Shown: positions 9,692 to 43,235, counted from the first letter of the stretch. The stretch is DNA of 64,000 nt from an uncultured Pseudomonadota bacterium (GCA_964388745.1 CAYMBP010000004.1:7430-71429), one strand, 5' to 3'. Translations and numbers: made by a program. The notes: generated by a model not told the origin, from the letters alone.

Positions 9692-10094
9692 TCACAGAGG
9701 ATTTGAGCTTAAAGAAAACATTATCGAGTTCTATAAGAATTATGAATGGATAGATGTTGGTACAGACTCAAGTGAAGTAACCGATTATCCCTTGTATGCC
9801 CAAGCTGTTTGCGCGGCAATTCTTGAAAAAAAAGTTGATAGCGGCATTTTGCTTTGTGGGTCTGGAATTGGGATTTCAATTGCTGCAAATCGCTTTAAAG
9901 GGATATATGCAGCATTGTGCTGGTCTCCAGAAGTTGCTCGCCTTGCTAAAGAAGATGATAATGTTAACGTCTTAGTGTTGCCTGCAGATTTTATCTCATT
10001 ATCGCAAGCAGTTTCCTGTATTGATATTTGGCAAAAGACTGCTTTTAAGGGTGGGCGTTATGCAAAGCGACTTAATTTGATTGATGCTGCTTAG
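9669..10094 (+). CDS. rpiB: ribose-5-phosphate isomerase B
   Basis: The family N-terminus MKICIGSDHRGFELKE starts at the ATG at 9669 (the track ORF begins at 9612). LCGSGIGISIAANR motif present. Confidence 0.85.
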   Translation: MKICIGSDHRGFELKENIIEFYKNYEWIDVGTDSSEVTDYPLYAQAVCAAILEKKVDSGILLCGSGIGISIAANRFKGIYAALCWSPEVARLAKEDDNVNVLVLPADFISLSQAVSCIDIWQKTAFKGGRYAKRLNLIDAA

Positions 10095-11552: not shown

Positions 11553-14495
11553 GTGATTATGAGCGATAAATCATCAAAAAACCCATATCAAAATACACTA
11601 AATCTTCCTACAACTACTTTTTCAATTAGGGCAAATGCAGCAGAAAAGGAGCCTGAAATTTTATCCTTTTGGAAAGAGCATAGTATTGCGCGTAAAGTTG
11701 TTGAAAGTAATAAAAAACAACCAACTTTTTTATTACATGATGGACCTCCATATGCCAATGGCCCCATTCATATTGGTCATGCATTAAATAAAACGCTTAA
11801 GGATGTAGTAGGAAAATCAAAACGAATGGCAGGATATCATGTACCATTTGTTTGTGGATGGGATTGTCATGGTTTGCCTATTGAGCTCAAAGTTGCAGCT
11901 CAACAAAAAGAAGAGGGTGATAATCGATCATTAAAGTCTCGTTGTCGAGCATATGCGCAAAAATGGATTGATCATCAAAAGCAAGAATTTGAAGATCTTG
12001 GTGTTTTTGCAGATGAAAAATATTACAGTACCATGTCATTTGAGTATGAAGCTGCAACAGTGAAAGCTTTAGCAAGTTTTGTACAACAAGGGTTTATTGA
12101 GCGGAAAGGAAAAACTGTACCATGGTGTGCTTCTTGTCAGACAGTGCTTGCTGTTGCCGAGATTGAGTATCAAGATCGCAAGGATCCTTCTTGTTATGTC
12201 AGGTTTGAATTAACGCTTGATGATGCTCAAATGCTTTTTCCTCTGTTGTTTGAACGAGAGCAAGAGTTAACAATAAGCTTGCTTGCTTGGACAACAACAC
12301 CATGGACTTTGCCACTGAATAGAGCTATTGTATTAAATCCTTCTGCTGAATATGTTTTACTCAAAGAGGCAGATTCTACGCATGCTGTTATCATTGCTGC
12401 TGATTTAGTAGAAGCACTTGCTCAATCAACGGGAAAAGAGTTAACAGAACTCTGTCGTCTTGACTCACTTCTTTTTCAAGGAAAATTCGTTAAGCATGCG
12501 ATTGATGAGAGCCTTATGGTTCCAATATTACTTGATGATGCTGTTTTAGTCGGTGAGGGGACTGCAGTGCTGCATACTGCACCTGGATGTGGACCTGACG
12601 ATTATCATTTAGCATTGAAACATGGTATTGAAATTTTTTCTCCGCTTTCAGCAGATGGATGCTATACTACAGGTATTCAACCAGAAGAACTCGTCGGAAT
12701 GAAGGTGGCAGATGGGCAATGGTGGGTACTCAAGAGACTTAAAGAGCGGGGGCTCTTATTTCATAAGGGTTCTATAAAGCACTCCTACCCTCATTGTTGG
12801 CGGTGTCATCAGGGTTTGATGTTTCGAGCTACGGATCAATGGTTTTGTGATTTGCAAAAAAATGGATTAGTTGAAAAGGCCTTAAAGCAAATTGGTGAAG
12901 CAACGTTTATTCCAGAATGGGGAAAGACGCGTCTTAAATCATTTGTAAGTAATCGTTATGAGTGGTGTATTTCTCGGCAACGTTCTTGGGGCGTTCCTAT
13001 TCCTGCGCTTATGTGTTCTCATTGTTCATGGACTTACATGAATCATCATTTTATAGAGTCTGTTGCTCAAGGGATTGAGAAAGAAGGTATTGAGTATTGG
13101 GATCATGTAACGCTTGAAGAGCTTAAAAAGGCTGGAGCGTTACCAAGTGATTTTTCCTGTGACCAGTGCCAGGAGAGTGAACTTACATCTTTTATTAAAG
13201 AAAAAGATACCCTTGATGTTTGGTTTGACTCTGGAGTGAGTCATTATGCTGTGCTCAATGAACAATTTGGCTTAACTTGGCCTGCAGATTTATATCTTGA
13301 AGGATCTGATCAGCATCGTGGTTGGTTTCAAAGCTCTCTGTTATGCGGGATGGTATTGTTTGGCAAAGCACCTTACAAGTCGGTTTTAACTCATGGCTAT
13401 GTGCTCAATGAAGATAAGCGAAAAATGTCCAAATCATTGGGAAATGTTATTGCTCCGCAAAATGTAATTGCAAAGTTAAGCCGAGATATTTTACGCCTAT
13501 GGGCTGTGACTGTTGACTATGAGCATGACGTAGTTATTTCTGAAAAGTTATTAAATAATGTTGCTGAAGTATATCGCAAATTAAGAAACACCGCACGATT
13601 TTTACTTTCAAATTTATATGACTTTAATGTTGAGCAGAATGCGGTTAATGTTAGTCGTATGAGTTTTCTTGATCAGTTAACTCTTGCTCGTTTATATGAG
13701 ATAAATCGTCAGGTTAAAAAAGCGTATGAAGAATATAATTTTGCAGCTGTTGTTCAGTTGCTTAATAATTACTGTGTTAAAGAGCTAAGTGCGTTGTATC
13801 TTGATATTGTTAAAGATCGACTCTACTGTGATAAACAAAATGGGGAGTCTCGTAAAGCTGCCCAAACCGTGTTGTTTGCTATTCTTGATACACTTGTTCG
13901 TTTGATGGCACCGATTACTTCATTTACCGCTGAAGAGATCTTTCAATCATATCGATCTGAAGGTTTGCCAGAGTCAGTTCATTTGTTATGGTTCAGCTCT
14001 GATGTTGATATTTGGGAACATTGTATGTACAAATTTTCTCATCTAAAAACCACTGCAATGATAAAGGAAGAAGATATATCTTTAGGAACAACAACGCGAG
14101 AACTCATGCTGATGGTGCAAGAGAAGTTAGATGATCTGAGAGGGTCTGTGCTTAAATCCCTTGAAAAGATCCGTGAGAAGGGAACAATCAAGCATTCGCT
14201 TGAAGCGAGTGTTGCTTTATATTTATCTGATAATGAGCCGGCAGTTAAGTTATTAAAAGAAATTCATGAGACTTATCAGCTAGGGTCACTTGAAGACTTT
14301 TTGAAGGACTGGTTTATTGTCTCTTCTGTTAAGCTTGTTGGGGTACAAGAAGGGCTAGAGGCAACTGAGCTTGATTGGTGTATGCTATTGACCAATCATG
14401 CGCAAGGAATCAAATGCCCTCGCTGTTGGCAATGGAGTGAAAATGCTGATGCTGAAAAACAGCTTTGTCAGCGGTGTTGTGAGGTCGTAAAATAG
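11553..14495 (+). CDS. ileS: isoleucyl-tRNA synthetase
   Basis: 980 aa with HDGPPYANGPIHIGHALNK (HIGH), KMSKSLGN and a C-terminal Cys cluster CPRCWQW...CQRCC. The track start is GTG at 11553; the ATG at 11559 with AGGA 8 nt upstream is an equally likely start. Confidence 0.95.
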   Translation: MIMSDKSSKNPYQNTLNLPTTTFSIRANAAEKEPEILSFWKEHSIARKVVESNKKQPTFLLHDGPPYANGPIHIGHALNKTLKDVVGKSKRMAGYHVPFVCGWDCHGLPIELKVAAQQKEEGDNRSLKSRCRAYAQKWIDHQKQEFEDLGVFADEKYYSTMSFEYEAATVKALASFVQQGFIERKGKTVPWCASCQTVLAVAEIEYQDRKDPSCYVRFELTLDDAQMLFPLLFEREQELTISLLAWTTTPWTLPLNRAIVLNPSAEYVLLKEADSTHAVIIAADLVEALAQSTGKELTELCRLDSLLFQGKFVKHAIDESLMVPILLDDAVLVGEGTAVLHTAPGCGPDDYHLALKHGIEIFSPLSADGCYTTGIQPEELVGMKVADGQWWVLKRLKERGLLFHKGSIKHSYPHCWRCHQGLMFRATDQWFCDLQKNGLVEKALKQIGEATFIPEWGKTRLKSFVSNRYEWCISRQRSWGVPIPALMCSHCSWTYMNHHFIESVAQGIEKEGIEYWDHVTLEELKKAGALPSDFSCDQCQESELTSFIKEKDTLDVWFDSGVSHYAVLNEQFGLTWPADLYLEGSDQHRGWFQSSLLCGMVLFGKAPYKSVLTHGYVLNEDKRKMSKSLGNVIAPQNVIAKLSRDILRLWAVTVDYEHDVVISEKLLNNVAEVYRKLRNTARFLLSNLYDFNVEQNAVNVSRMSFLDQLTLARLYEINRQVKKAYEEYNFAAVVQLLNNYCVKELSALYLDIVKDRLYCDKQNGESRKAAQTVLFAILDTLVRLMAPITSFTAEEIFQSYRSEGLPESVHLLWFSSDVDIWEHCMYKFSHLKTTAMIKEEDISLGTTTRELMLMVQEKLDDLRGSVLKSLEKIREKGTIKHSLEASVALYLSDNEPAVKLLKEIHETYQLGSLEDFLKDWFIVSSVKLVGVQEGLEATELDWCMLLTNHAQGIKCPRCWQWSENADAEKQLCQRCCEVVK

Positions 14496-14503
14496 TTCAA
14501 TTT

Positions 14504-15868
14504 TTACAATTTTTTCTTCAAGGCTGTCAGTTGGTCTTTTAATTTTTCAAGATTGGTTTTAAGCCCATTGAGTTTTTGACTAAGTGATTTTATATTATTT
14601 TCGAGCGCCTCTTGTCGTACAGTAATGTGCTGTGGAGTAAGAGGCGCTGCCATTTGTGCTGCTTTTTTGCTTGGTGGCAGCAGTGTTGCTCGTTTGTATA
14701 AAAGAATATAAGGGGTCCCTATTTCTTTTTCTTGTGCAGCAATGGCTTTAATTTCAGATTTCCCTGAGTATTCAGTAACGAAATCATCGTTAAATTTGCG
14801 CCATACTTCGTCGGGTCCTTGTCCGTAGGCCCAGTAGTGTCCACCCGTAAGATCTCCTTTGTGGCAGATGATAGCGGAGAGATTGTAGGGGATATATTCT
14901 TCGGATTGAAGGTAGTGGCCAAGGTTAATTATTAAAGGAAAATTAACAGGAGTATTGTTTTTTATTAATGTGGATCCAGTTATTTGAAAACGTTTTAAGC
15001 TGATAATAACATAATCTGAAATGCTGGAGAGGTAGGCCTTTCTTGAGAGTCGGTTCTTACTAGCAACAAGGGGATAGTATACTTTTTCTGGTTGTCCTTT
15101 ATTTTTTTTCTTCAAATTTAATGCTTTAAGTTCTTGTTTGAATTGTTCTATATGATCTTTGTAAACATAGTATTTCTCTTTCTCCTGATGATCGCAAATG
15201 CCAACATCAATTTTACCTAAAGATGTAATGTCAATAAACATTGTTGAAAAATAGGCTTTTAAAAGTGCCTCTAAGTTTTTTTCTATTTTATCAGGAATTT
15301 CTAGGGTAAGTATTGAACTGGACTCAGTTTTAAAACTTGATGTTCCGCAGTTTCCACATATTGTTTCAAATGTTTCTTCAAAGAATAGTATTTCTTTAAT
15401 TTGATTATTGTATTGAGTGAGGTAATCAATAAATTTATTTAAAAATTCATGGGCATCTTCTTGTCTGCCTTCAAAAAAAAGAGGTTTCTTTTCCCAATCA
15501 ACTAGCAATTTAAGCGCAAGAGCCTGCAGTTTTTTCACCTGATTATCTCGTACATCCTTTCTTGCTGATGATTTTACTAAGGGGTCTTCTAGGTGTTTAA
15601 TTCTGAGGTGATTATTAACAAGGTTTACATAGGTTTCAATGAGTTGGTCTGTAATTTGTTGACTGAGCTCTTCAGTCAGGTGTTCAATATTTGATAAGAG
15701 TTGTATTGAAGAGTTAAAATAGCAGCTATTACCGCAATTGAGCATGCCGTATTGTCGAGGAGATTTATCCCCAGCACCTCTTAATGACCAGAAACCTACG
15801 ATAAGAAAGCCTAAAAATTTACTCAGTTTCTTGAATTTTTGGCATTTCACAATCTGGACATTTGCCAT
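14504..15868 (-). CDS. USP/UBP-type (peptidase C19-like) deubiquitinase-like cysteine protease with C-terminal coiled coil
   Basis: Cys box GMLNCGNSCYFNSSIQLL. His box YNLSAIICHKGDLTGGHYWAY followed by FNDDFV. Own AAGGA Shine-Dalgarno lies inside the upstream gene. N-terminal hydrophobic FLGFLIVGFW. Confidence 0.8.
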   Translation of the reverse strand: MANVQIVKCQKFKKLSKFLGFLIVGFWSLRGAGDKSPRQYGMLNCGNSCYFNSSIQLLSNIEHLTEELSQQITDQLIETYVNLVNNHLRIKHLEDPLVKSSARKDVRDNQVKKLQALALKLLVDWEKKPLFFEGRQEDAHEFLNKFIDYLTQYNNQIKEILFFEETFETICGNCGTSSFKTESSSILTLEIPDKIEKNLEALLKAYFSTMFIDITSLGKIDVGICDHQEKEKYYVYKDHIEQFKQELKALNLKKKNKGQPEKVYYPLVASKNRLSRKAYLSSISDYVIISLKRFQITGSTLIKNNTPVNFPLIINLGHYLQSEEYIPYNLSAIICHKGDLTGGHYWAYGQGPDEVWRKFNDDFVTEYSGKSEIKAIAAQEKEIGTPYILLYKRATLLPPSKKAAQMAAPLTPQHITVRQEALENNIKSLSQKLNGLKTNLEKLKDQLTALKKKL

Positions 15869-16913
15869 ATCTCATTCCTTGATAATAATAATGCTTGCCA
15901 CTCTTTTTGAATAAACATGTTTTATGTACAACATGGCCACACCGATAAGTTCTTTTGTTAAAATAAGATCGTCGAGGAATGCTTTTGGTACATATTGCGC
16001 ATATATTTGATTGTTGCTCCTTATAGTCTTTGATTGTATCAAGAGTAACATGGTACACTAAGTTTTCAGAGATAGGGGCTTTTCCATCAGGCTGGTGTAA
16101 AATGTTTTTGATAATTGTATGAAGCAGTTTTTCTCGTTCTTGAGGAGGAATTCCTTGCTCTCTAATCTCTTCTTGAATGGCGATGCGAGCTGATTCAATT
16201 GACTCAAAAAAGAATTCACTTTTCTTTATTTTATTTCTTGAGCGCTTTGAGCGTGAAAGGCGCTTTTTTTCTCTAAGAGCTTCTTGTTCTGTTTTGTGAG
16301 CAAACTCATGAATGCTTTGGTCTGTTGCTGGATCTATGTTTTTAAGCCGATTAATAGCGTTATTAATGATAATTTTAATATTTCGAGAGCTGAGGGCTGG
16401 ATGGCCTGAAGTAAGCATTCGTTGATGAGCAAAAATATCTTCTTTAATTGATTTGTACAAGCTTCTTTTATAGGTGCGGATGAGTTCTGGTGATTCAATC
16501 TTCATATTGTCCATAATATATTGAGTAAGTGCAAATGATATTGCTTGACGAGCATATGGTACAAGAAACATCTCTTTTGGAGCACCTTTTTGATAATTGT
16601 GTGGAAAAGTAAGAAAAAGGTATTGCTTAAGCTGTTTTTTGATTTTTTTTACTTTTTTAGGAGTAAGTCGAGGTCCATAGTGTAAGAGCATCAGGCCAGT
16701 TTTATGAAGAAGGGCTTGTTGTGTAGTAGTTTCAATCTCTATATTAAATTCTTTGATAATAGTATTGGTATAAATTTTTATTTGTTTGAATGCATCTTGA
16801 AGACTTACCCTATTGTATAACCATGGATTTAAGTTACTCTGTACAGGCCAAAGAACCATCGGTGTATCAAGAATAATGAATGCTATAAGAATCAAGCATA
16901 TTTTTTTTATCAT
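15819..16913 (-). CDS. RING-H2 finger protein (E3 ubiquitin ligase-like) with N-terminal signal/TM segment
   Basis: The C-terminus reads C-x2-C-x16-C-x1-H-x2-H-x2-C-x18-C-x2-C (CAIC...CGHVVHKTC...CPDC), the canonical C3H2C3 RING spacing. GGAG Shine-Dalgarno 8 nt upstream. The 3' end overlaps the USP-like gene by 50 nt. Confidence 0.75.
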   Translation of the reverse strand: MIKKICLILIAFIILDTPMVLWPVQSNLNPWLYNRVSLQDAFKQIKIYTNTIIKEFNIEIETTTQQALLHKTGLMLLHYGPRLTPKKVKKIKKQLKQYLFLTFPHNYQKGAPKEMFLVPYARQAISFALTQYIMDNMKIESPELIRTYKRSLYKSIKEDIFAHQRMLTSGHPALSSRNIKIIINNAINRLKNIDPATDQSIHEFAHKTEQEALREKKRLSRSKRSRNKIKKSEFFFESIESARIAIQEEIREQGIPPQEREKLLHTIIKNILHQPDGKAPISENLVYHVTLDTIKDYKEQQSNICAICTKSIPRRSYFNKRTYRCGHVVHKTCLFKKSGKHYYYQGMRYGKCPDCEMPKIQETE

Positions 16914-16984
16914 TGTTTTTCTCCGTGAATTTCTTAATAAGACTGAAATAAGGGTAGCGATATACTTTTATGCTCGTTGTTCAC

Positions 16985-17512
16985 CTACTGTCGAAGCTGA
17001 CTGTTTGTACTTTCAGCTGCTGCAAGAAGACGATCAATTTCTCGTAAAATATTTTGCATTTGATCAAATGCTGTTTTGACTTGAGTGTGGAGTACTTGAG
17101 CTCGTGTGATTTCAGCATTTGTCCGAGCCTCTTTTTTTGCATTCATTACAGCATTCATAATTTCAGTCATATTTTTTTCGGTAAATGCACGAGTATCACT
17201 AAATAATTGTTGTGATTTTTTAAGATTTTCAAGTGCAACATTCATTCGTTCATCTAGAAGTCTTTTTTCATTGATTAATGTTGTTATTTGTCGTTGCATT
17301 TCAATTGCTTGTGTGCGCGCAAGGTTAACAGCACTTTGAACTTTTGGCAGCTGCTGGGATTTTTGCTCAGCATTACGATATGATATAATCGCTTTTTCTT
17401 CTTGAGACTTCCATTCTTCTTTTTTTTGGCTATGAAGTGAAACATGAAAGCCTGAAATAAAAATAACAAAGAAGAGCATTCTCTCTTTGTCTGTTATTAT
17501 AAGATTCTTCAT
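16985..17512 (-). CDS. hypothetical secreted coiled-coil protein
   Basis: 175 aa. N-terminal MLFFVIFISGFHVSLHS; the rest is heptad-like and Gln/Glu/Lys-rich. Confidence 0.5.
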   Translation of the reverse strand: MKNLIITDKERMLFFVIFISGFHVSLHSQKKEEWKSQEEKAIISYRNAEQKSQQLPKVQSAVNLARTQAIEMQRQITTLINEKRLLDERMNVALENLKKSQQLFSDTRAFTEKNMTEIMNAVMNAKKEARTNAEITRAQVLHTQVKTAFDQMQNILREIDRLLAAAESTNSQLRQ

Positions 17513-17653
17513 AGACTGACTCCCCTTATTACAATAATTTTATTCTATTTATTTCATTATATTTTCTTAATTGTAATTTATTGCCTTAAGAAAAGTCAAT
17601 CAATTAATCATATATGAAATTTTTTATTCAGTTTTTAGTGGTGACAGAGAGGG

Positions 17654-18556
17654 TTAGAGGTCAGACTCATTGTTATAAAAAGCCTCTTCTTGCTCTACTG
17701 CATTAAGAAGCTTCTCTTTAGCTTTTTTAAGTTGCTTTTCTCCGTCAGTGCGTAGGAATTTTTTGATTTGATCAAGGTTTGCAACTTGTTGCTTGTAGGG
17801 GTTTTTGAGAATGGGGAAATATTTGTTCACGCAGACCTTCTCATTTTTTTGTAAAAATATAAGTAGATCTTTAATTGAATAGAATTTTTTTAAGTCTAGT
17901 TGTTCTATAGGTAAAGTTGTTTGTGTGTTGAGAATGGCAAGGTTAACGTCAAAAAGATAATCAGTAGCTTTAAGCTCTGCTAACAATTGTTTAAGGTGGG
18001 TATAATCTTTTTCTGGATATCGAAAAGTAAAGCTATCAATCTTCATTTCCATTTTTTTTATAAAAGCTGTGTCGTTTATTTTTAATTGGTTGCGTTGTTT
18101 ATACAGAAATTCAATTTGTCCTTCATATTGTTTAGAATAAAAGCTTAAAAAGTTTTTAATACGGTTTAAAATTTTTGCTCGTGTATTATCAGTTGGTAAA
18201 AGTTGTATTTCTTTATTATTAATTAAAACGTATGCTTTTGATGCAACCTCACCCACGAGATTTTCGGTTATATTAGCAGATCTATTTTGAATAGTAACGA
18301 GAACAGCAGGGGCTCGCTCTCGTTCTTCCATGGTACTTAATTTTGTTTTTTTCATAGACTGGAGAAGAATATTTACTCCAGCTGAAAAATCGCCTTCTGT
18401 ATAGAGTTTGTTGAGGTCTTGTAAGTTATTTCGACTTGCACTATTTATTGTATCCATGTAATGACTAGACCATGACTTAAACTCAGCAAAGCAAAAAGGA
18501 GTAAATGTAATAAAGCTGCAATAGATAATTATTTTTGTGGTATAAAAAGGCTTCAT
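17654..18556 (-). CDS. hypothetical secreted protein
   Basis: 300 aa with the N-terminal signal-like IIIYCSFITFTPFCFA. No family motif recognised. Confidence 0.5.
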   Translation of the reverse strand: MKPFYTTKIIIYCSFITFTPFCFAEFKSWSSHYMDTINSASRNNLQDLNKLYTEGDFSAGVNILLQSMKKTKLSTMEERERAPAVLVTIQNRSANITENLVGEVASKAYVLINNKEIQLLPTDNTRAKILNRIKNFLSFYSKQYEGQIEFLYKQRNQLKINDTAFIKKMEMKIDSFTFRYPEKDYTHLKQLLAELKATDYLFDVNLAILNTQTTLPIEQLDLKKFYSIKDLLIFLQKNEKVCVNKYFPILKNPYKQQVANLDQIKKFLRTDGEKQLKKAKEKLLNAVEQEEAFYNNESDL

Positions 18557-18585
18557 CTCCTACTCCTTCACATTACTACGAACGA

Positions 18586-19404
18586 CTATTGTTCATTTTT
18601 TTGCTGTTTTAAGTACTTATTTTTTATTTTTTTCATGGCAGGAACAAGGTGCTCTTTAATATATTGTTTTGCATGTGCAAGTGTAATGGTTTTTTGGGTA
18701 TCAAGATTTTTAAGGGCCTGAACTATATCTTTTTTATATAGGCCTTGATAGGGAGTCTGCTCCTTACCTATAACAAGAGCTTTTTTTAAGTCATTAACTG
18801 AATAGCTTGCGGTATTTGGAGCATCTTCTTTACTTATTTTAAAAGTCTCTTTTGCAATATTGAGAGGGGTGATGCGGATAGATTGCATGATCTTTTTTTT
18901 TTGTGTACGTAATGCCGCAAGTTTTTTTGCATCTAATTTGTTAATTTTTTCAATTTCATTTAGATTATTTTGATGATTTTTTTCAAGTTCTGTTTTTATT
19001 TTATCTGTAAGTTTGTTATATGCTTTTATATTGTTTCCAAGGATAGTTTTGCGATAGATGTTTCTCATTTTAGATAAAGTAAAAAGAGGCTCTTCATTAT
19101 TTTGAGGTGAAAAAACAATTATTTTTTCATTATTATTAAAGTTTTTAGGAAAAAGCTCTGAGCGTTGTTGTTGAAGGTCTTTGATGGATACGGTATTTTT
19201 TCTTTTTTTAGTATTTTTTCTTTTTTTTGCTTTTTTCTTTTTTTTTCTATTTAACTTCTTTTTTGCTTTTTCAAGTGTTGTTTCTTCTTCATTATTAATG
19301 TAATCATCAATCCCATCAGCTTGAAGTTGAGTTAGGGGTAAGGCCGTTTGTGTGCAAGTGAAAAGTATAAAAGCAATTAGATAGTGCTTGAATTGTTTAT
19401 TCAT
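18586..19404 (-). CDS. hypothetical secreted Lys-rich protein with NLS-like basic tract
   Basis: 272 aa. Signal-like YLIAFILFTCTQTALPL, then KKKLNRKKKKKAKKRKNTKKRKNT. The coding strand contains A10, A9 and A8 homopolymers. Confidence 0.5.
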   Translation of the reverse strand: MNKQFKHYLIAFILFTCTQTALPLTQLQADGIDDYINNEEETTLEKAKKKLNRKKKKKAKKRKNTKKRKNTVSIKDLQQQRSELFPKNFNNNEKIIVFSPQNNEEPLFTLSKMRNIYRKTILGNNIKAYNKLTDKIKTELEKNHQNNLNEIEKINKLDAKKLAALRTQKKKIMQSIRITPLNIAKETFKISKEDAPNTASYSVNDLKKALVIGKEQTPYQGLYKKDIVQALKNLDTQKTITLAHAKQYIKEHLVPAMKKIKNKYLKQQKNEQ

Positions 19405-19426
19405 TTTTTATTCCTTATACATAACA

Positions 19427-19483
19427 AAGCGCACATGTGATTTTGTAAGGGGTGGGAGCTTATTACAAATTACACGTGCGCTT
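19427..19483 (-). terminator. long imperfect hairpin between two minus-strand genes (probable terminator)
   Basis: AAGCGCAC...GTGCGCTT outer 8 bp plus about 12 further pairs, around a GGGGTGGGAGC loop. It lies 67 nt downstream of the stop of the 19550..20410 gene. Confidence 0.5.
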
Positions 19484-19549
19484 ATTTTTATGACAGTTTT
19501 TGGTTATTCCCACCCATAATTTTTGTTAACCTACTGTTCAAACATATTT

Positions 19550-20410
19550 TTATCGATGGCACTTTTTGAGCTTATTGCTACATTTTTTCCATTTTTTTTT
19601 GTGGTATTTTTTCCATGGAAAAAGAGTATACATAACTTTTTTGAGTTTTGTTTTTTCTTTGCATAGATTTTTTAACGTCTCATCATCTTTATATTTTTTC
19701 TTTATTGCATATGCTTGTTGCTTAAGATGCAGGTAAATATATTTTTTTCCACTTTTAAGATTGAGGTCACTTTCACTCTGGTCTAGGTGCTGAGCTATTT
19801 TAAGTTTTAATGCTTTTTCTTTAGCATTAGAGTTTAATTTTAATGGTGTATTCCACATGCCGCTTTTAAGCTGCTTCCAAACTTCATCAAAGGTATAAGC
19901 TTGATAGGCCTTAAAATTAAAATTTTTGAACGAAAGTTCTGTTGATAGTAGCTCATCTTTTATTTGATTTTTTTCTTGAAGAAGTTTTTTAAGAGCTTTA
20001 CCATCTTCCCTGTTGTAACTAGTGATGATGCTTAGCATAGAATCTTTGAGTCTATTTTTTTTATTTTTCCACTCTTGATAATAGTAGTCACTGGTGAGAC
20101 CAAGTTGGTTTACTCGAGCATTCCATAATGCTTCCCAAAGAACCGTTGCAGTTGGAGGAATTTGAGTATTATCAAATTTTATACTAATTTTTTTTGCATT
20201 ATTCCATTCTGGATTATCCTTGTAGTTGCAGTAACCATTTTTACTATTTTTTTTGTAATAGCAACGCTTTTTGCGGTTGTATCTGGAGGACTTATTCTTT
20301 TTTTTATGATGATGCCTCTGACCTTCGCTAGAGTGTTTACATAAAATTTTTTCAGGATTACTCATAAAAAAAGTTACAAGAAGGAGCAACTGTGATATTT
20401 TTTTATTCAT
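19550..20410 (-). CDS. hypothetical secreted Lys/basic-rich protein
   Basis: 286 aa. Signal-like ISQLLLLVTFFMS. Basic tracts HHHKKKNKSSRYNRKKR and the C-terminal KKYHKKKWKKCSNKLKKCHR. Confidence 0.5.
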   Translation of the reverse strand: MNKKISQLLLLVTFFMSNPEKILCKHSSEGQRHHHKKKNKSSRYNRKKRCYYKKNSKNGYCNYKDNPEWNNAKKISIKFDNTQIPPTATVLWEALWNARVNQLGLTSDYYYQEWKNKKNRLKDSMLSIITSYNREDGKALKKLLQEKNQIKDELLSTELSFKNFNFKAYQAYTFDEVWKQLKSGMWNTPLKLNSNAKEKALKLKIAQHLDQSESDLNLKSGKKYIYLHLKQQAYAIKKKYKDDETLKNLCKEKTKLKKVMYTLFPWKKYHKKKWKKCSNKLKKCHR

Positions 20411-20765
20411 TTTTTCCTTTCTTCCTACAAATTAAAAATAAAATTAGTCGAAGACATGTTGAAAAGACTGACAATCCAGTTGACATCGAGGTCAAGCACT
20501 CAGGGACTTTTTGTTCGTTTGAGGCCCGATACTGCACGATGCAGCAAAAGGAGAGTGTAATCTTCTCAACTTGTCTTTCTACTTTTAAACTACATAAAAG
20601 TATTACAAAAAAACAATAATTTTGTGTTTTTATATAAAAGAGGTAGGTGTTTACAGCGTGAGAATTGTCTTAATCTTATTATATAAGAGCTCTAAGTATA
20701 ATCTATTTTACACAAATATGGGGCTATTCCTCATTTAGATTTTTATGAGGTAGAAGGATGATATT

Positions 20766-20798
20766 GAGAAAAAAGATTGCAGCAATACAATCTTTTTT
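20766..20798 (-). terminator. rho-independent (bidirectional-looking) terminator after the 20842..22083 gene
   Basis: Stem AAAAGATTG (20771..20779) / CAATCTTTT (20788..20796), flanked by an A-run and a T-run. Confidence 0.6.
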
Positions 20799-20841
20799 AG
20801 TTCTATTGTCATTTTTTACAAATAATCCCATATGAAAAGAG

Positions 20842-22083
20842 TTAGCTTGCAGTTGCTTCAGGAATAATAAGACCTGAAACTTTTTTTAAGAGCTTGCTGA
20901 CTTGGCTCCTTTTTTGAGACCACTCGGTTGGCATGTTATTGGCAAGTGTATTAAGTTGGACTTGTAATTTTTGTTTAATTTGAGCAAGTTCTTGATTATC
21001 TTTAGCAGTAGGATCTTTAAGATTATTGAGAGCTCTCTCTAGGCTATTTGATGAGGATTCTATATTTTTAACAAGGCGAGATTCTTCTTGTTCAAAGAGG
21101 GATTTAAGCTTTTTATTTTCAATAAGATGTATTCCGTCATTTATAAGCATTGTCATTACTCGAGTGGCTGTAGGCTGATTTGGAGCTAGTGAAAAACGCA
21201 CAAGGTAAGGGGTTGCTTTATTAAGCTGAGCAATAAGATTTTTGTTTTCTGCTGAAAAATATTTTTTTTCAGCTTCGGGAAGCTCGTTAAGTTGTCGCAC
21301 ATAGCTGGATAAGCCTGAGGCAAGGCTTTCAAATTTATTTTGACTTGGCCGTTGAAGTTCTTCATATGCCGTCAGTAAATCTTTTTCAGGAGATGAGCTT
21401 TTTGTCTTGGTACTGATAATAGCGATAATGGTTGATAGGTCGTGATTAAGCTTTTTTACTATTTGTTGCAGTTGGTTTTCTTTTATCTCTTTTTCATCAT
21501 TACTTTTACTCTTTTTATTCTTATTTTTTGAGGTATAGCCTGGTGATGAAGGAGTGGTATTTGTTTTTTTTGTTTGAGGGGTTTGAATATTTTTGTTTTT
21601 TGATTGAGATGATTGTTGAAGTGGTTGTTTATTGAAAGCAGAGGAGTGTTCCTGATAAGGGCTTCGGCCAAAACCTCGATTAGATGAAGAAGGGCGTCCA
21701 CCACCAAAGGGTGAGTAACTTCCATAGCTGCTACGACCATGTCCGTATGAAGAGCCATATCCGCGTCCATATGAAGGCCTTCGTCCACTGCTGCGATTTC
21801 CAACAGAAGCACCTCTACTTTTGAGTCCTCCAGCCCCTACACGTTTTTGTTTTTGAGCTGCACTATCTTCTTGTTGCTTGATTCGTTTTTTTTCCGCCTC
21901 TATCGCTTGTATTGTGATTTTATCATTGCGAAGAGCGCTAAGTCGGCTAGTAATTGAATTGAGAGGTTGTAGTGCTCGCTCTGTCTCTTGTTCATAGGCA
22001 CTTACTAAAGGCTTTTGTGGTTGAGGTGATAATGTATAAACTATCGTATTTGTCATAAGAGCGATAATAAAAAGTAATGACAT
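20842..22083 (-). CDS. hypothetical secreted protein with RGG/SYG low-complexity region
   Basis: 413 aa. N-terminal MSLLFIIALMTNTIVYTLS. Central GRRPSYGRGYGSSYGHGRSSYGSYSPFGGGRPSSSNRGFGRSPY, followed by a Q/S/K/N/T-rich tract and a helical C-terminal half. Confidence 0.55.
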   Translation of the reverse strand: MSLLFIIALMTNTIVYTLSPQPQKPLVSAYEQETERALQPLNSITSRLSALRNDKITIQAIEAEKKRIKQQEDSAAQKQKRVGAGGLKSRGASVGNRSSGRRPSYGRGYGSSYGHGRSSYGSYSPFGGGRPSSSNRGFGRSPYQEHSSAFNKQPLQQSSQSKNKNIQTPQTKKTNTTPSSPGYTSKNKNKKSKSNDEKEIKENQLQQIVKKLNHDLSTIIAIISTKTKSSSPEKDLLTAYEELQRPSQNKFESLASGLSSYVRQLNELPEAEKKYFSAENKNLIAQLNKATPYLVRFSLAPNQPTATRVMTMLINDGIHLIENKKLKSLFEQEESRLVKNIESSSNSLERALNNLKDPTAKDNQELAQIKQKLQVQLNTLANNMPTEWSQKRSQVSKLLKKVSGLIIPEATAS

Positions 22084-22098
22084 ACAATATTCCTTTTT

Positions 22099-22932
22099 CT
22101 AGTATCCGCGGGGTGACCGATCGATTTTTTTCTGACGAATAGATGTGCGTCGTTCGATTGTACTCATTTGATCAAGTTTGGGGAGTGGAACTTTTATTTT
22201 TTTGAGTTGTTTATATGAGTCTTTGATATCTTGCTGTTTTATTGATGGTATTTTTTGTACCACTTTGCTTAGACTTTCAAACAATCCATAGATATCTTTT
22301 CTTAAAGAGACTCTCTCTTTATCTGATGAAAAAAAGGTTGTAAGATAGGCATTATGACTTGAAATTAACTCATATTCACTCTCAAATGTGTCGATATGCT
22401 GTTTGTAGCTTTGTTCAAATCGATCTTTAAAGCTCTGTGAAAAGACATCTCCTATAATAGCTGATTCGATAGTTCGCAGGTGCTCAACAAGATTACCCAT
22501 GTGGTAATGATATGCATGTTTTTTTAAGGAGGGTATTTCCTCTAATGTTTGCTTTGAATTTGAGCCTGTTTCTTTATTTGAAAGAGAATCAAGAAAGTTT
22601 GACTTTAGGTCATTTTTTTGAATTTTTACAGTCTGTTGAGGTAAAACAGTTTGAGGGATTTCATTGTTAGGAGGTGACCAGGTTGGTTCAGGAGAAGGGC
22701 TTTGCTGCTCTTTACGAAGCTCTTGCTCAAGTTCATTTTCTAATTCTTTAACAAATTCTCCAAAATCAAAATTTTCTCCAAACAGAGAGCCAAATGAAAA
22801 GGGGTCTTCGTTACCTTTAATCAAAGACTGTGTAAGAAGCATAGTTGTAATCAGTGCACAAAAAGAGATAATAATATTTTTATTACGGCGTAAAAGAGAG
22901 TTCATAGTGACTCCTCTTGTTTTTCCCCCCAA
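22099..22932 (-). CDS. hypothetical secreted protein
   Basis: 277-aa ORF. The likely start is at the internal MNSLLRRNKNIIISFCALITTMLL (nt 22905). It is followed 15 nt later by the next gene, so co-transcription is likely. Confidence 0.5.
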   Translation of the reverse strand: MGGKTRGVTMNSLLRRNKNIIISFCALITTMLLTQSLIKGNEDPFSFGSLFGENFDFGEFVKELENELEQELRKEQQSPSPEPTWSPPNNEIPQTVLPQQTVKIQKNDLKSNFLDSLSNKETGSNSKQTLEEIPSLKKHAYHYHMGNLVEHLRTIESAIIGDVFSQSFKDRFEQSYKQHIDTFESEYELISSHNAYLTTFFSSDKERVSLRKDIYGLFESLSKVVQKIPSIKQQDIKDSYKQLKKIKVPLPKLDQMSTIERRTSIRQKKIDRSPRGY

Positions 22933-23029
22933 GGGTATGTTATTCCTTAAAACATGTAACGTATCTTTGTAACATCATAAAAGAGTGGTGAACGGATAAT
23001 CAAGTCTATGAAAAATTGGTCTGTTTAGC

Positions 23030-23254
23030 ATGGCAAGGATTGTTTTTATGGTATCACATAATAAGTATCAAAACAAAAGGGGGTGGATTTTGTATGAACT
23101 TGCAGTGAGCATAGCAATTTTATCTTTTATGACAATAAGTATTATTTCTATGATAGGTTGTATAGAGATGCTATTTCAACAACAAAAGATGATTATTCAT
23201 AGAACGGAGCTTACGCATGAAAAGCAAAAAAAGGAAGGGGTCAAGCCTTATTGA
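23030..23254 (+). CDS. prepilin-type N-terminal domain protein (minor pseudopilin-like)
   Basis: KRG/WILYELAVSIAIL: Gly at -1, Glu at +5 and a hydrophobic helix, which is the class III (prepilin peptidase) signal pattern. Confidence 0.55.
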   Translation: MARIVFMVSHNKYQNKRGWILYELAVSIAILSFMTISIISMIGCIEMLFQQQKMIIHRTELTHEKQKKEGVKPY

Positions 23255-23714
23255 GTTATTTGTTGGTCTAGCAGGAGCTGTCAGCCTTTCGTTAATGCTT
23301 TGTCATTTGATTGTTTTTATTATGCAATATATCAAAGTTTCTCATCAAAAGGATAGTGAGCTTGATGCGCTTCTTGTTATTGATAGTCTCAAACGAGACC
23401 TGATAAGTGCTGTTCCCGCTCTTTCGATTAGCCAGCAAGGAGTATTCTGTTTACATGTTCTTGATTCAAAAAAAAGACCTATTGAAAAATTTATTAAGTG
23501 GGGGTGCAATGAATCAGGTCTTTTTCGCAAAGAGGGGAATTTCGATAGAAAAAAAGACTCTTTTTATGCCAACTCAACAATTATGATGCGTTGTCCTATT
23601 ACTTCATTGAGTATCAGTTTTAGTGATGGGAAAAGGGCACTTTGTTCTATTAATTATACAATTAGAGGTAATCAATATCAGACGAACACTTATATACTTA
23701 ATAAAATTTTTTAA
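23217..23714 (+). CDS. prepilin-type N-terminal domain protein (minor pseudopilin-like)
   Basis: KKRKG/SSLIELFVGLAGAV: Gly at -1, Glu at +5. Overlaps the previous ORF by 38 nt. Confidence 0.55.
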   Translation: MKSKKRKGSSLIELFVGLAGAVSLSLMLCHLIVFIMQYIKVSHQKDSELDALLVIDSLKRDLISAVPALSISQQGVFCLHVLDSKKRPIEKFIKWGCNESGLFRKEGNFDRKKDSFYANSTIMMRCPITSLSISFSDGKRALCSINYTIRGNQYQTNTYILNKIF

Positions 23715-23726: not shown

Positions 23727-24158
23727 ATGATTCAACGTGATGGTTTTTGCGTAGTGCTTGTTTTGCTTTCAATAACAATAATGATGGTGTTGTTAATGCA
23801 TGTTTGGGCACGACAATCATTGTCCATGTTGCTTTTACAGCATAGAGAATGTTTTTATGAAAAAAGGGACCTTCTTGCTAATGCGCTTTCTGTTGCCTGT
23901 AGACAATTAAAAAATAGGCAAGATCATGATGATCCTGGTCAGATTTCATTTATTACCAGTGATAAGGCACAAGTAAACGGAAGGAATTTTCAAGTGACAA
24001 CGTTGTTAAAGCTTGATGAAAAAAAGAAAGATCTTTATCTACTTAATATTGAATGCAAGGATAACGCTGGTAAAGAATTATCCTTGTCTGGCTTTTTATT
24101 ACGAAGGGCTGATCATGTTATTGCTGATTACATTACTCTCAGGCCTGGCATACGGTAG
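23727..24158 (+). CDS. pseudopilin-like protein lacking Glu+5 (GspK-like pattern)
   Basis: MIQRDG/FCVVLVLLSITIMMVLL: Gly then a hydrophobic helix with no Glu at +5. Third gene in the same run. Confidence 0.4.
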   Translation: MIQRDGFCVVLVLLSITIMMVLLMHVWARQSLSMLLLQHRECFYEKRDLLANALSVACRQLKNRQDHDDPGQISFITSDKAQVNGRNFQVTTLLKLDEKKKDLYLLNIECKDNAGKELSLSGFLLRRADHVIADYITLRPGIR

Positions 24159-25386
24159 CGCATTTGTTTTTCCCTATCTTCTTGGGTGGCTTGTTTTGCC
24201 ATCATTAACAGCAGTATGCCTTGTTTTATACTTTTGTATTTGTTCATCAGAGTCATTATTCAAAATTAGCTTACTTGGCCTTGCTTGGGGTTGGGCCGCT
24301 TATGCTGTTTCACACTATTGGACTTTTTTTGTTGTGATTGATAATAGTACGGTTACCACTCCTTATGCCTTTGGATTAACCATAATAATGGCATTTGTTA
24401 TGTCGCTTAGCGTTGTACTTTGGTGGTTTATTACTGGACTTCTTGCAAGGCTTTCTTCGTCACATTTTTTTTATGGTATTCTTATTTTGGTAACATCTTA
24501 CGGATACTTTTTATTAATGAATCAAAAGGGCGGAATTATTATGGGACAAGATTGTGGCTATCCACTCTTTTCACCCGCAGTGCCCTTGTCTGCCTATCCT
24601 TTATTTCTTAGTTGTGTTAGGCATCTGAGTTCTGCTACAGCTCCAGGGCATTACATGAGCAATAAACAACATAAATTGAATATTGAATTTAAACATCTTA
24701 AGCCTGTTATTAATAAGCGAACGGAGCAGAAACTTAAACATCTTCAATCAAAGCAGGGGTGTGGGCAAGGGATATACCTTGTTTTGCAAGAATTAACTAA
24801 AACAATAGATCCCAATAAAAAGACAATTATTGTCTCGCCTGAAAGTTCTTTTCCTCATTGCCTGAATGAAGCTCATGATCACCACGAATTGTGGTCAAAC
24901 GGATTTCCGTCAAATGCACACTTACTTATTGGATCCCAACATCGCAGCAATAAAAAAGGAAAAAGGACTCAAGCAATTTATCATATGACAAACGGTCGCA
25001 TAACTGATTTTTATGTAAAAAAACATTTAATGCCTTTTGGAGAAACTCCTCCACCTTGGTTTATCGCACAATTTTTACAAGAAAAATGGTTTGGACAGAC
25101 AGAATGGATGGAGCGTAATGATTGCCAAGGAGTTCATACTTTTTCTGTTGAAGGAATAACAATAATTCCTCAGGTATGTTCAGAATTTTTGGCTTGCAAT
25201 AGCCGCGCACATTTTTTTCCTTGGCGGATTAGGCAATCTGAAAATCCAACGTTTATTTTATTTTTTGTTAATGATAGCTGGTTTAGAGATTCTTTCAATG
25301 ATATTTTAAAATTATATGCGGCTCTTCGCCAAGCATGGATTGGCATTCCTGTTATTTATATTGGACATGATGATCTTATTCAATAA
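24115..25386 (+). CDS. lnt: apolipoprotein N-acyltransferase
   Basis: Multi-TM N-terminal half plus a CN-hydrolase half with the E-K-C triad contexts IIVSPESSFP, KKHLMPFGE and QVCSEF. The start is placed at the ATG at 24115 (MLLLITLLSGLAYG); the track ORF starts at 24013. Confidence 0.7.
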   Translation: MLLLITLLSGLAYGSAFVFPYLLGWLVLPSLTAVCLVLYFCICSSESLFKISLLGLAWGWAAYAVSHYWTFFVVIDNSTVTTPYAFGLTIIMAFVMSLSVVLWWFITGLLARLSSSHFFYGILILVTSYGYFLLMNQKGGIIMGQDCGYPLFSPAVPLSAYPLFLSCVRHLSSATAPGHYMSNKQHKLNIEFKHLKPVINKRTEQKLKHLQSKQGCGQGIYLVLQELTKTIDPNKKTIIVSPESSFPHCLNEAHDHHELWSNGFPSNAHLLIGSQHRSNKKGKRTQAIYHMTNGRITDFYVKKHLMPFGETPPPWFIAQFLQEKWFGQTEWMERNDCQGVHTFSVEGITIIPQVCSEFLACNSRAHFFPWRIRQSENPTFILFFVNDSWFRDSFNDILKLYAALRQAWIGIPVIYIGHDDLIQ

Positions 25387-25406: not shown

Positions 25407-26633
25407 GTGAGTATGAAAATATTTTTACTATTTATATCATTAATTGGATTAATGCATAATCTTGCTTATACAATGAAAATAAAAAAAAGAATTCGCTGGG
25501 CTGATGAAATAGGCTATTATGAAGGAGATAATGTGGATTGTCCTCGTGATATAGAGGAGGTCATAACCAAGAATGAAAGGGCTCTAAATTCTTTAATCAA
25601 AAGTTATTTAAGAATTCGATTGATGTTACCAAGCATATGCTCTCTATTGCCTGATGATTATACAAAAAGCATTATAGGTAAAATTTTATATAATGACGAG
25701 CACAATGAAGAAAGCTTAGCTTATTGTAAAAAAGAGTGGCATTTAATGTATCAAAGAGCAGAAGGAGCTTTAATGTTCAATATGCTTACCAACCTTCAAG
25801 AGAAATATCAATTGACTGAGGAACTTAATCTCCAATTAAAAGATATTTACGGACAATTATCTTTGCTTAAAGAAAGTGTTGAATACACATGCAAAGCATT
25901 ATATGGTGATATGCCTTTTTATGAGGAAATTTATGAAGAAATTTATGAAGAGCATTCATTACTTAAGGCATATATAAGGGAAGTAAAATATCTTGTGTCA
26001 ACATATAAAGAAGATCCATGGAGTTATCTTAATAAAACAGATAAGGGTGCACAATTGGCATGTCATTATGCTCAGTATAAAAATAAAATAACAGGAGAAG
26101 GAATATCTAGTGGAGTATTTATTGGAAAAAAACTTTTTCCAATAACCGCTTCTGTGATTGCTGATATTCATGTTAAACATATTTTTGACGTACTTTTTGC
26201 CCCTTTTGAAGTAGAGTATTATGAAGGGCTAAGTGGATGCGGATATCGTAGTAAGTGGAAGTTTGATGAAAAATTTATAGAAAAACTTGAAATCATTGAA
26301 ATGTCAATTGATGATTTTACAAGTTATGCTCTTTTTTTTAAACAAATTTATTATATACTCCATGCAAGAAAAGACTCTTGTGAGCAATCGGAAAGGTTGC
26401 TATTATCATTTGATGCATTTTGGAAAAAAGTTTGTGATCTAGCGAATAATGTCGATTTTAGGCATTACAAGGAGCATTTTTCAGCTATAATAACATTCAA
26501 AAAAAAGATGCTCGAAGAAAAAAAGCTTATAGATGCTATTTTAGAAAAAGAAGAGCAAATTTATAGCAATATAAGGCCTGAAGAAAATTTTATAAAGGCT
26601 GTTTGGAGAGATGTTAAAGCCCTTGTTTTCTGA
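25407..26633 (+). CDS. hypothetical secreted protein
   Basis: 408 aa. The signal-like MKIFLLFISLIGLMHNLAYT starts at the ATG at 25413. Contains an EEIYEEIYEE tandem. No family motif recognised. Confidence 0.5.
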   Translation: MSMKIFLLFISLIGLMHNLAYTMKIKKRIRWADEIGYYEGDNVDCPRDIEEVITKNERALNSLIKSYLRIRLMLPSICSLLPDDYTKSIIGKILYNDEHNEESLAYCKKEWHLMYQRAEGALMFNMLTNLQEKYQLTEELNLQLKDIYGQLSLLKESVEYTCKALYGDMPFYEEIYEEIYEEHSLLKAYIREVKYLVSTYKEDPWSYLNKTDKGAQLACHYAQYKNKITGEGISSGVFIGKKLFPITASVIADIHVKHIFDVLFAPFEVEYYEGLSGCGYRSKWKFDEKFIEKLEIIEMSIDDFTSYALFFKQIYYILHARKDSCEQSERLLLSFDAFWKKVCDLANNVDFRHYKEHFSAIITFKKKMLEEKKLIDAILEKEEQIYSNIRPEENFIKAVWRDVKALVF

Positions 26634-29154: not shown

Positions 29155-29199
29155 AAAGAGAGAAGAGGTCTTTGATATGGTTTCTATTACGTTTTAAAT

Positions 29200-29662: not shown

Positions 29663-29758
29663 GCTAATAAAAATAACAACTAAAAGACTCTTACTTTGTT
29701 AGTCAAATCTTATCGTTCACAGGACAGCAAGAACTTATCTATCAAATTTAAGGGTAAA

Positions 29759-30876: not shown

Positions 30877-30904
30877 TTGCAAGAGAAGTGGTTCGTGGTA
30901 TACT
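30877..30904 (+). promoter_or_regulatory. sigma70-type promoter for proS
   Basis: TTGCAA (30877..30882), 16-nt spacer, TATACT (30899..30904), with TGG immediately upstream (extended -10 like). It lies 57 nt before the proS ATG. Confidence 0.5.
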
Positions 30905-30960
30905 CTTTTCAATTATATTTGTTAGTTAGATTATACCTGAACTACTTGTAGAAAGCTGCT

Positions 30961-32394: not shown

Positions 32395-32485
32395 AGCGGT
32401 CAGAGCTTCAGTATTCTAGTTTCTTAGTCATTATTTTTGTATTCTATTGCCTGTTAATTATCCTGAAAGCATCGTGATACAATCT

Positions 32486-43218: not shown

Positions 43219-43235
43219 AGATGCTCCTTAATGAT

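Follow-up and report, generated by a model that had tools for sequence, protein, structure and literature searches.

Organization of the locus

When examining a 64,000-nucleotide stretch of DNA that is deposited under the name of an uncultured Pseudomonadota bacterium (GCA_964388745.1, CAYMBP010000004.1:7430-71429; hereafter, the window), we analyzed the interval between ileS (11553-14495, plus strand) and a set of pseudopilin-like genes that begins at 23030, also on the plus strand. This interval is occupied by a block of eight open reading frames (ORFs) of 175-454 codons, denoted here O1 to O8, all on the minus strand at 14504-22932, and the block is probably an inherited locus of rapidly diverging exported proteins peculiar to the Dependentiae (TM6). 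Each ORF has a conserved homologue, so all eight are real genes. We assign the source of the window, in which the G+C content is ~35%, to the TM6/Dependentiae because its IleS is 51-58% identical to the IleS of metagenome-assembled genomes labelled Dependentiae/Babeliales; the closest relative in our genome and metagenome scans is at 58% IleS identity. A preliminary description of this DNA had presented the same eight ORFs as an accessory island of orphan genes with signal- or transmembrane-like N-termini and no housekeeping motif, including a USP-like and a RING-H2 ORF, a Lys-rich pair and an RGG/SY protein, and separated at two places by hairpins. The extent of the block, these features of its products, none of which has a housekeeping function, and both hairpins are borne out below.

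Read from the pseudopilin-like genes toward ileS, the block starts with O8 (22099-22905; the longest ORF extends to a TTG at 22932), in which a predicted signal is followed by an acidic helix, a Pro-rich linker and a helical domain, and with O7 (20842-22083), which combines a signal, a coiled coil, a tract rich in Gly, Ser, Arg and Tyr (G/S/R/Y) and a helical C-terminal domain; the families of these two proteins are referred to as F8 and F7. Just 3' of O7, a minus-strand hairpin consisting of an A-tract, a stem and a T-tract (20766-20798; -11.5 kcal/mol, z -3.8) serves as the predicted terminator of the O8-O7 operon. Across the 430-bp O7-O6 intergenic region (20411-20841) lie O6 (19550-20410; signal, His/Lys-rich tract, helical domain and Lys-rich tail), O5 (18586-19404; signal, polybasic tract and helical domain), O4 (17654-18556; a signal-bearing protein of 300 amino acids (aa) from a very small family), O3 (16985-17512; a signal-bearing coiled-coil protein of 175 aa), O2 (15819-16913; signal, helical, repeat-like domain and C-terminal RING-H2) and O1 (14504-15868; a signal-bearing USP/C19 deubiquitinase of 454 aa). 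O6 is bounded by a long minus-strand hairpin located between this gene and O5, a likely terminator or attenuator (19427-19483; -21.3 kcal/mol, z -5.9, with none of 200 shuffles equally stable). Little space separates the genes from O5 to O1, the last two of which, O2 and O1, overlap. A consensus scan for promoters and terminators performed no better than on shuffled sequences (29 versus 33 expected; 8 versus 5.9) and missed both hairpins that are supported by folding. A co-directional run of eight genes is not unusual in itself, as the window also holds a run of ten (42310-54855). Searches of Pfam and NCBIfam gave no match for O3 to O8, and a search of the window against Rfam gave none either.

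Conservation and divergence of the locus in the Dependentiae

Homologues of all eight ORFs were found at the same position in other Dependentiae contigs, at the level of IleS identity given above (the related loci are denoted by numbers with the prefix L). A tblastn comparison of the eight proteins with the first six related loci retrieved nothing, although the flanks were clearly syntenic; plain tblastn alone would have wrongly backed the designation of these genes as orphans, and sequence profiles and closer contigs were needed to recognize the homologues. The conserved flanks consist of ileS on one side and of the genes for the pseudopilins, an Lnt-like protein, L9 and DnaB on the other side, and the intervening ORFs of the relatives encode proteins of the same architecture. 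The contexts of the F8 family include RuvC, DnaB, L9, the Lnt-like gene and three pseudopilin-like genes and, in the divergent direction, F8, F7, a gap of ~500 bp and a protein of ~330 aa. In L012 (IleS 56%), the layout is nearly that of the window, the order from ileS being an AAA_14 ATPase, a USP, an O2 homologue with a RING-H2, two coiled-coil proteins, O7, O8 and the pseudopilins. The order in L022 is O8, O7, x, O6/O5-like, x, O4, O3, x and ileS, with x standing for other genes, and that in L023-25 is O8, an O7-like gene, a tandem array of five paralogues, O4, O3, O2 with the RING and a second RING protein. The check for presence or absence in relatives that had been proposed in the preliminary description goes against both of its terms: every ORF has a syntenic homologue, the homologues occupy the same site in L012, L022, L023-25 and other contigs, and the flanks and gene order are shared, so that neither "orphan" nor "accessory island" can be maintained. 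Universally conserved core genes of known bacterial function would, in the same description, have spoken against a host-interaction locus; these genes are indeed conserved within the lineage, but none has a known function.

The block proteins are only 25-37% identical between genomes in which DnaB is 65-72% and L9 is 61-67% identical, which indicates fast evolution, as expected for host-facing proteins. Their families are confined to Dependentiae-like contigs and, the USP domain of O1 (PF00443) aside, lack Pfam models. Judging from these comparisons, the locus appears to be inherited but quickly evolving, its centre being subject to the gain, loss and duplication of genes. At its outer edge, genes of the AAA_14/DUF4143 ATPase, PIN and nucleotidyltransferase toxin-antitoxin types recur in relatives (L012 12989-14224, L007 14086-15960, L010 8853-10022 and L023 10567-11270); these are absent from the window.

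Predicted export signals

Signals were called with our own heuristic for the n-, h- and c-regions, combined with the maximum of Kyte-Doolittle hydropathy over 11 residues, which is not a trained predictor. By this measure, an N-terminal hydrophobic segment is present in all eight proteins, the USP-like O1 included (maxima of 2.05-3.73); the h-region comprises 10-15 residues in each of them, and the n-region is positively charged in seven, O7 being the exception. Segments of 10-15 residues have the length of signal peptides rather than that of membrane anchors. Plausible cleavage sites, sought by small residues at -3 and -1 and with the slash marking the cut, are GAG/D in O1, LHS/Q in O3, CFA/E in O4, TQT/A in O5, ILC/K in O6 and IKG/N in O8, and the heuristic, which allows 7-15 hydrophobic residues for the h-region, recognizes a Sec-type signal in all eight proteins, with the cleavage site of O2 unclear. 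The orthologues of O1 and O4 show clearer signal peptides than the proteins of the window. On these grounds, the products look exported.

Comparable N-termini are found in 20 of the 41 other ORFs of the window (28 of 49 overall), and the resulting enrichment in the block (hypergeometric p 0.007) is explained mostly by the lack of housekeeping genes there; nearly every ORF of unassigned function elsewhere in the window is likewise signal-bearing. Signal-bearing proteins of no known function are a genome-wide trait of the phylum: in Chromulinavorax destructans, signal peptides are present on 44% of the coding sequences, among which ORFans and ankyrin proteins are overrepresented (Deeg et al. 2019, PMC6561590).

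Several other genes of the window belong to the same category. A signal-bearing WD40 protein is encoded at 29759-30391 and two signal-bearing ankyrin-repeat proteins at 57786-60092 and 60753-61661. The M17 leucyl aminopeptidase is normally a cytosolic enzyme; two adjacent paralogues from this family (36554-38251 and 38328-39971), 61% identical to each other, both have signal-like N-terminal segments. Another gene (40118-41623) encodes a signal-bearing protein of 501 aa with a borderline match to the Ulp1/C48 (SUMO protease-like) family (21.0 bits versus a cutoff of 20.7) and is a second candidate effector against ubiquitin-like modifiers, outside the block. Eukaryote-like secreted candidates are spread over the whole window, and the block is no special compartment in this respect.

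The USP and RING-H2 proteins

O1 matches the USP/UCH family PF00443 over profile positions 2-254 of 254 (126.3 bits versus a cutoff of 23.9, E 2.1e-36), and 89 USP chains in the PDB match it at E<=1e-3, with USP15 and USP2 at 1e-13 and the Cys and His boxes aligned. The h-region (aa 18-29) precedes the USP domain (aa 41-391, window 14696-15748), in which the catalytic boxes are GNSCYFNS from aa 46 (Cys49), GGHYWAY at aa 342 (His344) and FNDDFV at aa 359, and the protein ends with a coiled coil (aa 413-454, window 14507-14632). With its catalytic boxes intact, O1 is by all appearances a USP deubiquitinase. The positional orthologue in L012 (14341-16737; 26% identical, E 1e-22) is a protein of 798 aa with the signal MAFNKTTLALILFLTMGMHAVRA, a USP domain in which the Cys, His and Asp boxes are all kept, ankyrin repeats and the same terminal coiled coil. 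The best non-self matches of O1 are at ~25% identity, with no close relationship outside the Dependentiae. The start of O1 overlaps the 3' end of O2 by 50 nt, the ATG being preceded by an AAGGA Shine-Dalgarno sequence within O2, and the two genes are co-oriented in both genomes that carry both, namely, the window and L012.

O2 consists, beyond its signal, of a helical domain that defines the F2 family (aa 36-306) and a predicted RING-H2 (aa 305-355, window 15849-16001). The ligand pattern of the latter, C-x2-C-x16-C-x-H-x2-H-x2-C-x18-C-x2-C (CAIC-x16-CGH-VV-H-KT-C-x18-CPDC), is complete and conforms to the eight-ligand spacing C-x2-C-x(9-39)-C-x(1-3)-H-x(2-3)-H-x2-C-x(4-48)-C-x2-C. With an F2 profile built from the relatives only, O2 was the sole match among the 49 window ORFs (E 1.5e-6, aa 36-306), and a search with the O2 family returned P0026-P0034, which delineates a conserved family of ~330 aa. 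RING-bearing orthologues are encoded in L023 (8563-9606, E 6e-37) and L012 (16750-17799, E 4e-22), and all eight ligands together with the HKTCL core are invariant across these three proteins. The L023 orthologue passes the Pfam cutoff for zf-C3HC4 (21.6 versus 21) and stays below that for zf-RING_2 (26.5 versus 27.3), and the L012 orthologue scores 24.2 versus 27.9 with zf-RING_5. When a profile of the three RING sequences was compared with the PDB, the RING domains of RCHY1, Arkadia, RNF24 and AMFR ranked at the top (E 0.003-0.05), the first three of these at 0.003-0.02. Members of the F2 family that lack the RING (P0026-P0034 and those in L002, L007, L009 and L010) outnumber those that have it; they align at both edges of the RING, without its middle part and the cysteines, and look like products of the decay of an ancestral RING, apparently lost in one clade. 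In the AlphaFold model of O2, the mean predicted local distance difference test score (pLDDT) is 58.8, with the helical, repeat-like N-terminal domain at 60-80, and a Foldseek comparison of this model with the PDB gave nothing with E<0.4 or a template-modelling score (TM) >0.3. In L023, the gene directly after the O2 orthologue (9757-10425), in the slot of the window's USP, encodes another signal-bearing protein in which Cys and His residues form a RING-like pattern.

The O8-O7 pair and the pseudopilin-like genes

The start of O8 is most likely the ATG at 22905 and not the TTG at 22932, because the ATG is preceded by the Shine-Dalgarno sequence AAGAGGAG. O8 is the first gene of the O8-O7 operon and is separated from O7 by 15 nt, and the orthologues in relatives overlap by 4 nt; in L003, F8 is fused to F7. 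The acidic helix of O8 has the form FxDLF..DFEQ. With an F8 profile of relatives only, O8 was the sole match among the 49 ORFs (1.8e-13), and an alignment of four O8 sequences retrieved the family P0016-P0025 (E 1e-44 to 1e-96), which has no Pfam model; comparison of the family profile with PDB sequences produced no meaningful match. An AlphaFold prediction for O8 with 10 family sequences was entirely helical, with a pLDDT of 40.8 that is too low to test the fold. We also considered the possibility that O8 is a lipoprotein, given a conserved Cys in the h-region, and rejected it, since Phe occupies position -1 and L013 and L016 lack the Cys.

The G/S/R/Y low-complexity tract of O7 is 63 aa long (aa 82-144, window 21652-21840). 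O7 is 32% identical over 120 aa to the protein encoded at 6089-7423 in L022 (1.8e-9; 3e-12 in phmmer), and it ranked first in the window with an F7 profile from distant relatives run with filters off, at a compositionally biased 6.8e-4. In every related locus examined, a gene with the architecture of O7 immediately follows the O8 orthologue, and a strong terminator is located at the same place after the O7 orthologue in L002, L007, L009 and L010. An identification of O7 with the "mitofilin-like" protein mentioned for C. destructans found no support in Pfam and was discarded. The O8 orthologue adjoins pseudopilin genes in L002, L004, L007, L009, L010, L012, L013, L014, L016, L022 and L025. By gene order, O8-O7 appears to be a terminated two-gene operon next to pseudopilin genes in every related locus examined.

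The O8-O7 operon shares a divergent promoter region of 124 bp (22906-23029) with the pseudopilin-like operon, in which the minus strand has a sigma-70-like site (23003-22974; a consensus match only). The plus-strand operon starts with three minor-pseudopilin-like genes (23030-23254, 23217-23714 and 23727-24158) with G/xxxxE prepilin-like N-terminal motifs (the slash again marking the cut); they are so labelled on the basis of these motifs and of weak but consistent matches to ComGE, GspI and GspK. The fourth gene (24013-25386, plus strand) encodes a divergent, Lnt-like polytopic membrane protein, with a match to TIGR00546 lnt that is below threshold (E 2.4e-17, 63 bits versus a cutoff of 133) and none in Pfam. 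The three pseudopilin-like genes and the Lnt-like gene form one operon in every related locus, an unusual conserved pairing. Between the Lnt-like gene and rplI, the window has an inserted gene (25407-26633) for a signal-bearing protein of 408 aa without a family match; this slot holds an unrelated signal-bearing protein of 434 aa in L022 and is empty in L004 and L009. On the other side, the gap of ~500 bp between the O7 and O2 orthologues in four relatives (L002 15793-16297, L009 10910-11398, L010 7121-7645 and L007 10925-11458) contains, in addition to the strong terminator, a highly conserved ORF of 35 codons with its own ribosome-binding site; it encodes a single-helix peptide, MRSNNRAFIKIIALKLLWMISIITIILSIVKKFKI, and is probably an unannotated micro-protein gene.

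The centre of the block

Homologues of O3 are encoded in L022 (10918-11430, 3e-13) and L023 (7779-8399, 1.5e-9), where they sit directly before the position of O2 or after that of O4; a family profile also finds coiled-coil genes in L004 (14051-14530, 2.3e-12) and L012 (18147-18740, 2.1e-8). For O4, an exhaustive search of 1.84 billion representatives yielded only two relatives, P0036 (36%, E 2e-32) and P0037 (38%, 9e-31), both with signal peptides and both in the same locus of other Dependentiae contigs; there was no relative in Pfam and no meaningful match of the O4 family profile to PDB sequences. In the database, O4 is annotated only from M34 on, without the signal; we favour the long form because the homologues carry signals.

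O5 and O6 contain 19% and 21% Lys, respectively, and the polybasic tract of O5 includes KKKLNRKKKKK and KKRKNTKKRK. They are probably tandem paralogues, since both match the same gene in L022 (8257-9015; 1e-7 for O5 and 4.5e-14 for O6); the direct similarity between the two is marginal (28% over 123 aa, E 0.07). A joint profile of O5 and O6 detects the L023 tandem array as well as L022 9066-9995, and the start context ATGAATAAA is common to both genes. From these relationships, the segment of O6, O5, O4 and O3 appears to be one in which genes for small basic secreted proteins duplicate in tandem and turn over.

In other genomes, the same interval, from ileS to the O8 orthologue, holds sets of five or six signal-bearing paralogues of only 104-255 aa arranged in tandem, in L013 (8030-10624), where six of them make up the centre of the locus, and in L023 (3297-6646); this marks a duplication hotspot for small secreted proteins. 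In the O7-O6 spacer of the window, a hydrophobic minus-strand ORF of 27 codons (~20404-20487; MSTGLSVFSTCLRLILFLICRKKGKNE), the end of which overlaps the start codon of O6, could encode a leader peptide or be there by chance.

Interpretation

In our view, the block is probably a secretome locus that is specific to its lineage, has been inherited vertically and diverges rapidly, in a bacterium of the Dependentiae (TM6, Babeliales-like). The proteins would cross the inner membrane by the Sec pathway and then exit via a type II secretion system (T2SS) or vesicles; in Babela, the T2SS is the only secretion system (PMC4378268), T2SS genes are core in TM6 (PMC4776705), and vesicles have been observed for Chromulinavorax (PMC6561590). 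Within the protist host, the helical domain of O2 would bind target proteins, with the RING recruiting a host ubiquitin-conjugating enzyme (E2) to ubiquitinate them, and O1 would remove ubiquitin, so that O2 and O1 could act as an exported ubiquitin-editing pair, a notion prompted by the co-transcription of the two genes. Since the USP and RING-H2 domains make sense only in a eukaryotic host, the interaction with the host that the preliminary description ascribed to the entire locus is plausible for O1 and O2, which are likely effectors on host ubiquitin; it may or may not hold for the remaining genes. For O7, O8 and O3 to O6, we infer secreted or surface proteins that are co-regulated with the pseudopilus, and the constancy of O8-O7 next to the pseudopilin genes fits either a co-regulated cargo or an envelope or surface structure.

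Several observations weigh against this interpretation. The case for export is drawn from sequence, with the signals scored by our own heuristic only; O2 has no clear signal peptidase site and could stay membrane-anchored; export by Sec would place both a Cys protease and a zinc RING rich in Cys in the periplasm; and the presumed onward transport, through the outer membrane and then any membrane of the host, is conjectural. The only link to the T2SS is adjacency to weakly scoring pseudopilin-like genes. The RING of O2 is below the cutoff of every Pfam RING model (18.9 bits versus 27.3 for zf-RING_2), the Trp that usually contacts E2 is replaced, and the pLDDT of this part of the AlphaFold model (aa 305-364) is 33-38, from an alignment without homologous rows for the region. 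Among the lineages sampled, the RING is found in only three and the USP in only two. Finally, the orthology of O7 to its more distant counterparts is based partly on architecture and biased composition.

The main rival, which we regard as unlikely although it deserves serious attention, is that only O1 and O2 act on the host and that most of the block (O8, O7 and perhaps O3 to O6) encodes structural proteins of the envelope or surface, or unrecognized parts of the pseudopilus or the type II system. In all 11-12 related loci examined, O8-O7 sits beside the pseudopilin-like genes and shares a divergent promoter region with them, a kind of universality more typical of machinery than of effectors; the block proteins are bitopic-like or coiled-coil, with Pro-rich spacers that recall envelope-spanning proteins; and no canonical GspC, GspL or GspM was seen in the vicinity of the pseudopilin genes. 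Nevertheless, there is no similarity in sequence or fold to any component of the T2SS, type IV pili, Tol or Ton, the h-regions look cleavable rather than like anchors, and the very fast divergence (22-36% identity) and the disordered G/S/R/Y tract are unlike known machine parts. A more speculative and, in our estimate, distinctly improbable reading is that the O8-O7 pair, together with the often linked O2-family gene, comprises an unrecognized Dependentiae module tied to the type II pseudopilus, such as a secreted or surface scaffold, in which the conserved, disordered G/S/R/Y (FUS-like) tract could drive condensates or mimic host RGG proteins where parasite and host meet, and that one subclade recruited the RING-H2 and the USP as a ubiquitin-editing pair exported via Sec and the T2SS.

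Acquisition of the block as a horizontally transferred, accessory effector island of orphan genes is very unlikely and largely refuted by synteny. The eukaryote-like content (USP and RING), the variation in gene content between ileS and the O8 orthologue among genomes, the synonymous codon usage of O1, which is the most deviant in the window, and the toxin-antitoxin and AAA_14 genes at the edge of the locus in relatives would all be in line with such an origin. Against it stand the syntenic homologues that every one of the eight genes has in relatives with an IleS of only 51-58% identity, including the USP and RING orthologues in the same slots in L012. The compositional check suggested in the preliminary description also fails to single out the block, in which the G+C content is 0.29-0.39 (0.27-0.41 elsewhere in the window) and that of third codon positions is 0.22-0.30 (0.19-0.33). 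No tRNA or tmRNA was detected in the 64-kb window, no repeats were detected that flank the block, and no integrase-like ORF was detected within it by Pfam and NCBIfam searches. The notion that A+T-rich DNA produced some of these frames by chance, without their being genes, can be practically dismissed: four of the eight exact sequences are missing from the protein collection because different starts were annotated, but frames of 175-454 codons are very unlikely at 35% G+C, where stops are frequent, Shine-Dalgarno sequences are present, and conservation of every ORF refutes this explanation.

One more feature of the window can be mentioned, namely, the maximum of the cumulative GC skew at ~29000-33000, beside recF (33478-34581) and dnaN (34590-35711). 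A maximum near such origin-type genes is the reverse of the usual pattern.

To our knowledge, the Dependentiae parasitize protists, are widespread and have hardly been brought into culture, and it is not known how they take over their hosts. The locus supplies a defined group of candidate exported proteins, the syntenic genes of which can be followed through the phylum. Within this set, the co-transcribed RING-H2/USP pair offers direct candidates for ubiquitin ligase and deubiquitinase activity, and the O8-O7 pair, present in every related locus examined, is linked, by gene neighbourhood, to the only known secretion system of the phylum. A more general caution is that an "orphan island" called from one genome of a divergent lineage can dissolve under profile searches and synteny.

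Comparison with known systems

The closest parallel comes from Babela massiliensis, a member of the same phylum, for which type II export has been proposed and the reported proteins include three signal-bearing C19 ubiquitin C-terminal hydrolases, Ulp1-like peptidases that likewise carry signals, a RING finger protein and an F-box protein (Pagnier et al. 2015, PMC4378268). The resemblance extends to the domain types (C19/USP and RING), the N-terminal signal peptides and the proposed Sec and type II export into a protist host, and the Ulp1-like proteins have a counterpart in the signal-bearing protein at 40118-41623 of the window. The likeness that we describe is one of domain types. Not reported for Babela are a fixed site next to pseudopilin genes, a RING that is fused to a conserved family of ~330 aa and apparently lost in one clade, and a RING gene that overlaps a USP gene. 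In Chromulinavorax destructans, the secretome is a genome-wide property, whereas here we describe one locus that is syntenic across genomes.

Outside the phylum, Amoebophilus asiaticus encodes eukaryote-like USPs and F-/U-box proteins (e.g., Aasi_1805), with expression early in the infection and a presumed action on the ubiquitin of the host (PMC8831229). This is another obligate intracellular bacterium of protists with UCH-type deubiquitinases recognized by Pfam, but it belongs to the Bacteroidota, employs T6SS-like (type VI secretion system-like) delivery, and its proteins lack the architecture with a Sec signal. Among the eukaryotic RING-H2 ubiquitin ligases (E3s), such as RNF24, Arkadia/RNF111, RCHY1 and EL5, the C3H2C3 eight-ligand spacing, the hydrophobic residue after the first Cys pair and the Pro before the last pair are all shared with O2. 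By contrast, the scores are marginal (E 0.003-0.05), ligands 6 and 7 are separated by a loop of 18 residues, the usual E2-contacting Trp is missing, and the RING follows a bacterial signal and a lineage-specific helical domain.

Thus, secreted C19 hydrolases and a RING protein in this phylum are already known from Babela. What is new is a phylum-level, syntenic locus beside a pseudopilin operon, a RING that is fused to a conserved family and apparently lost from some of its members, and the pairing of the RING and USP genes.

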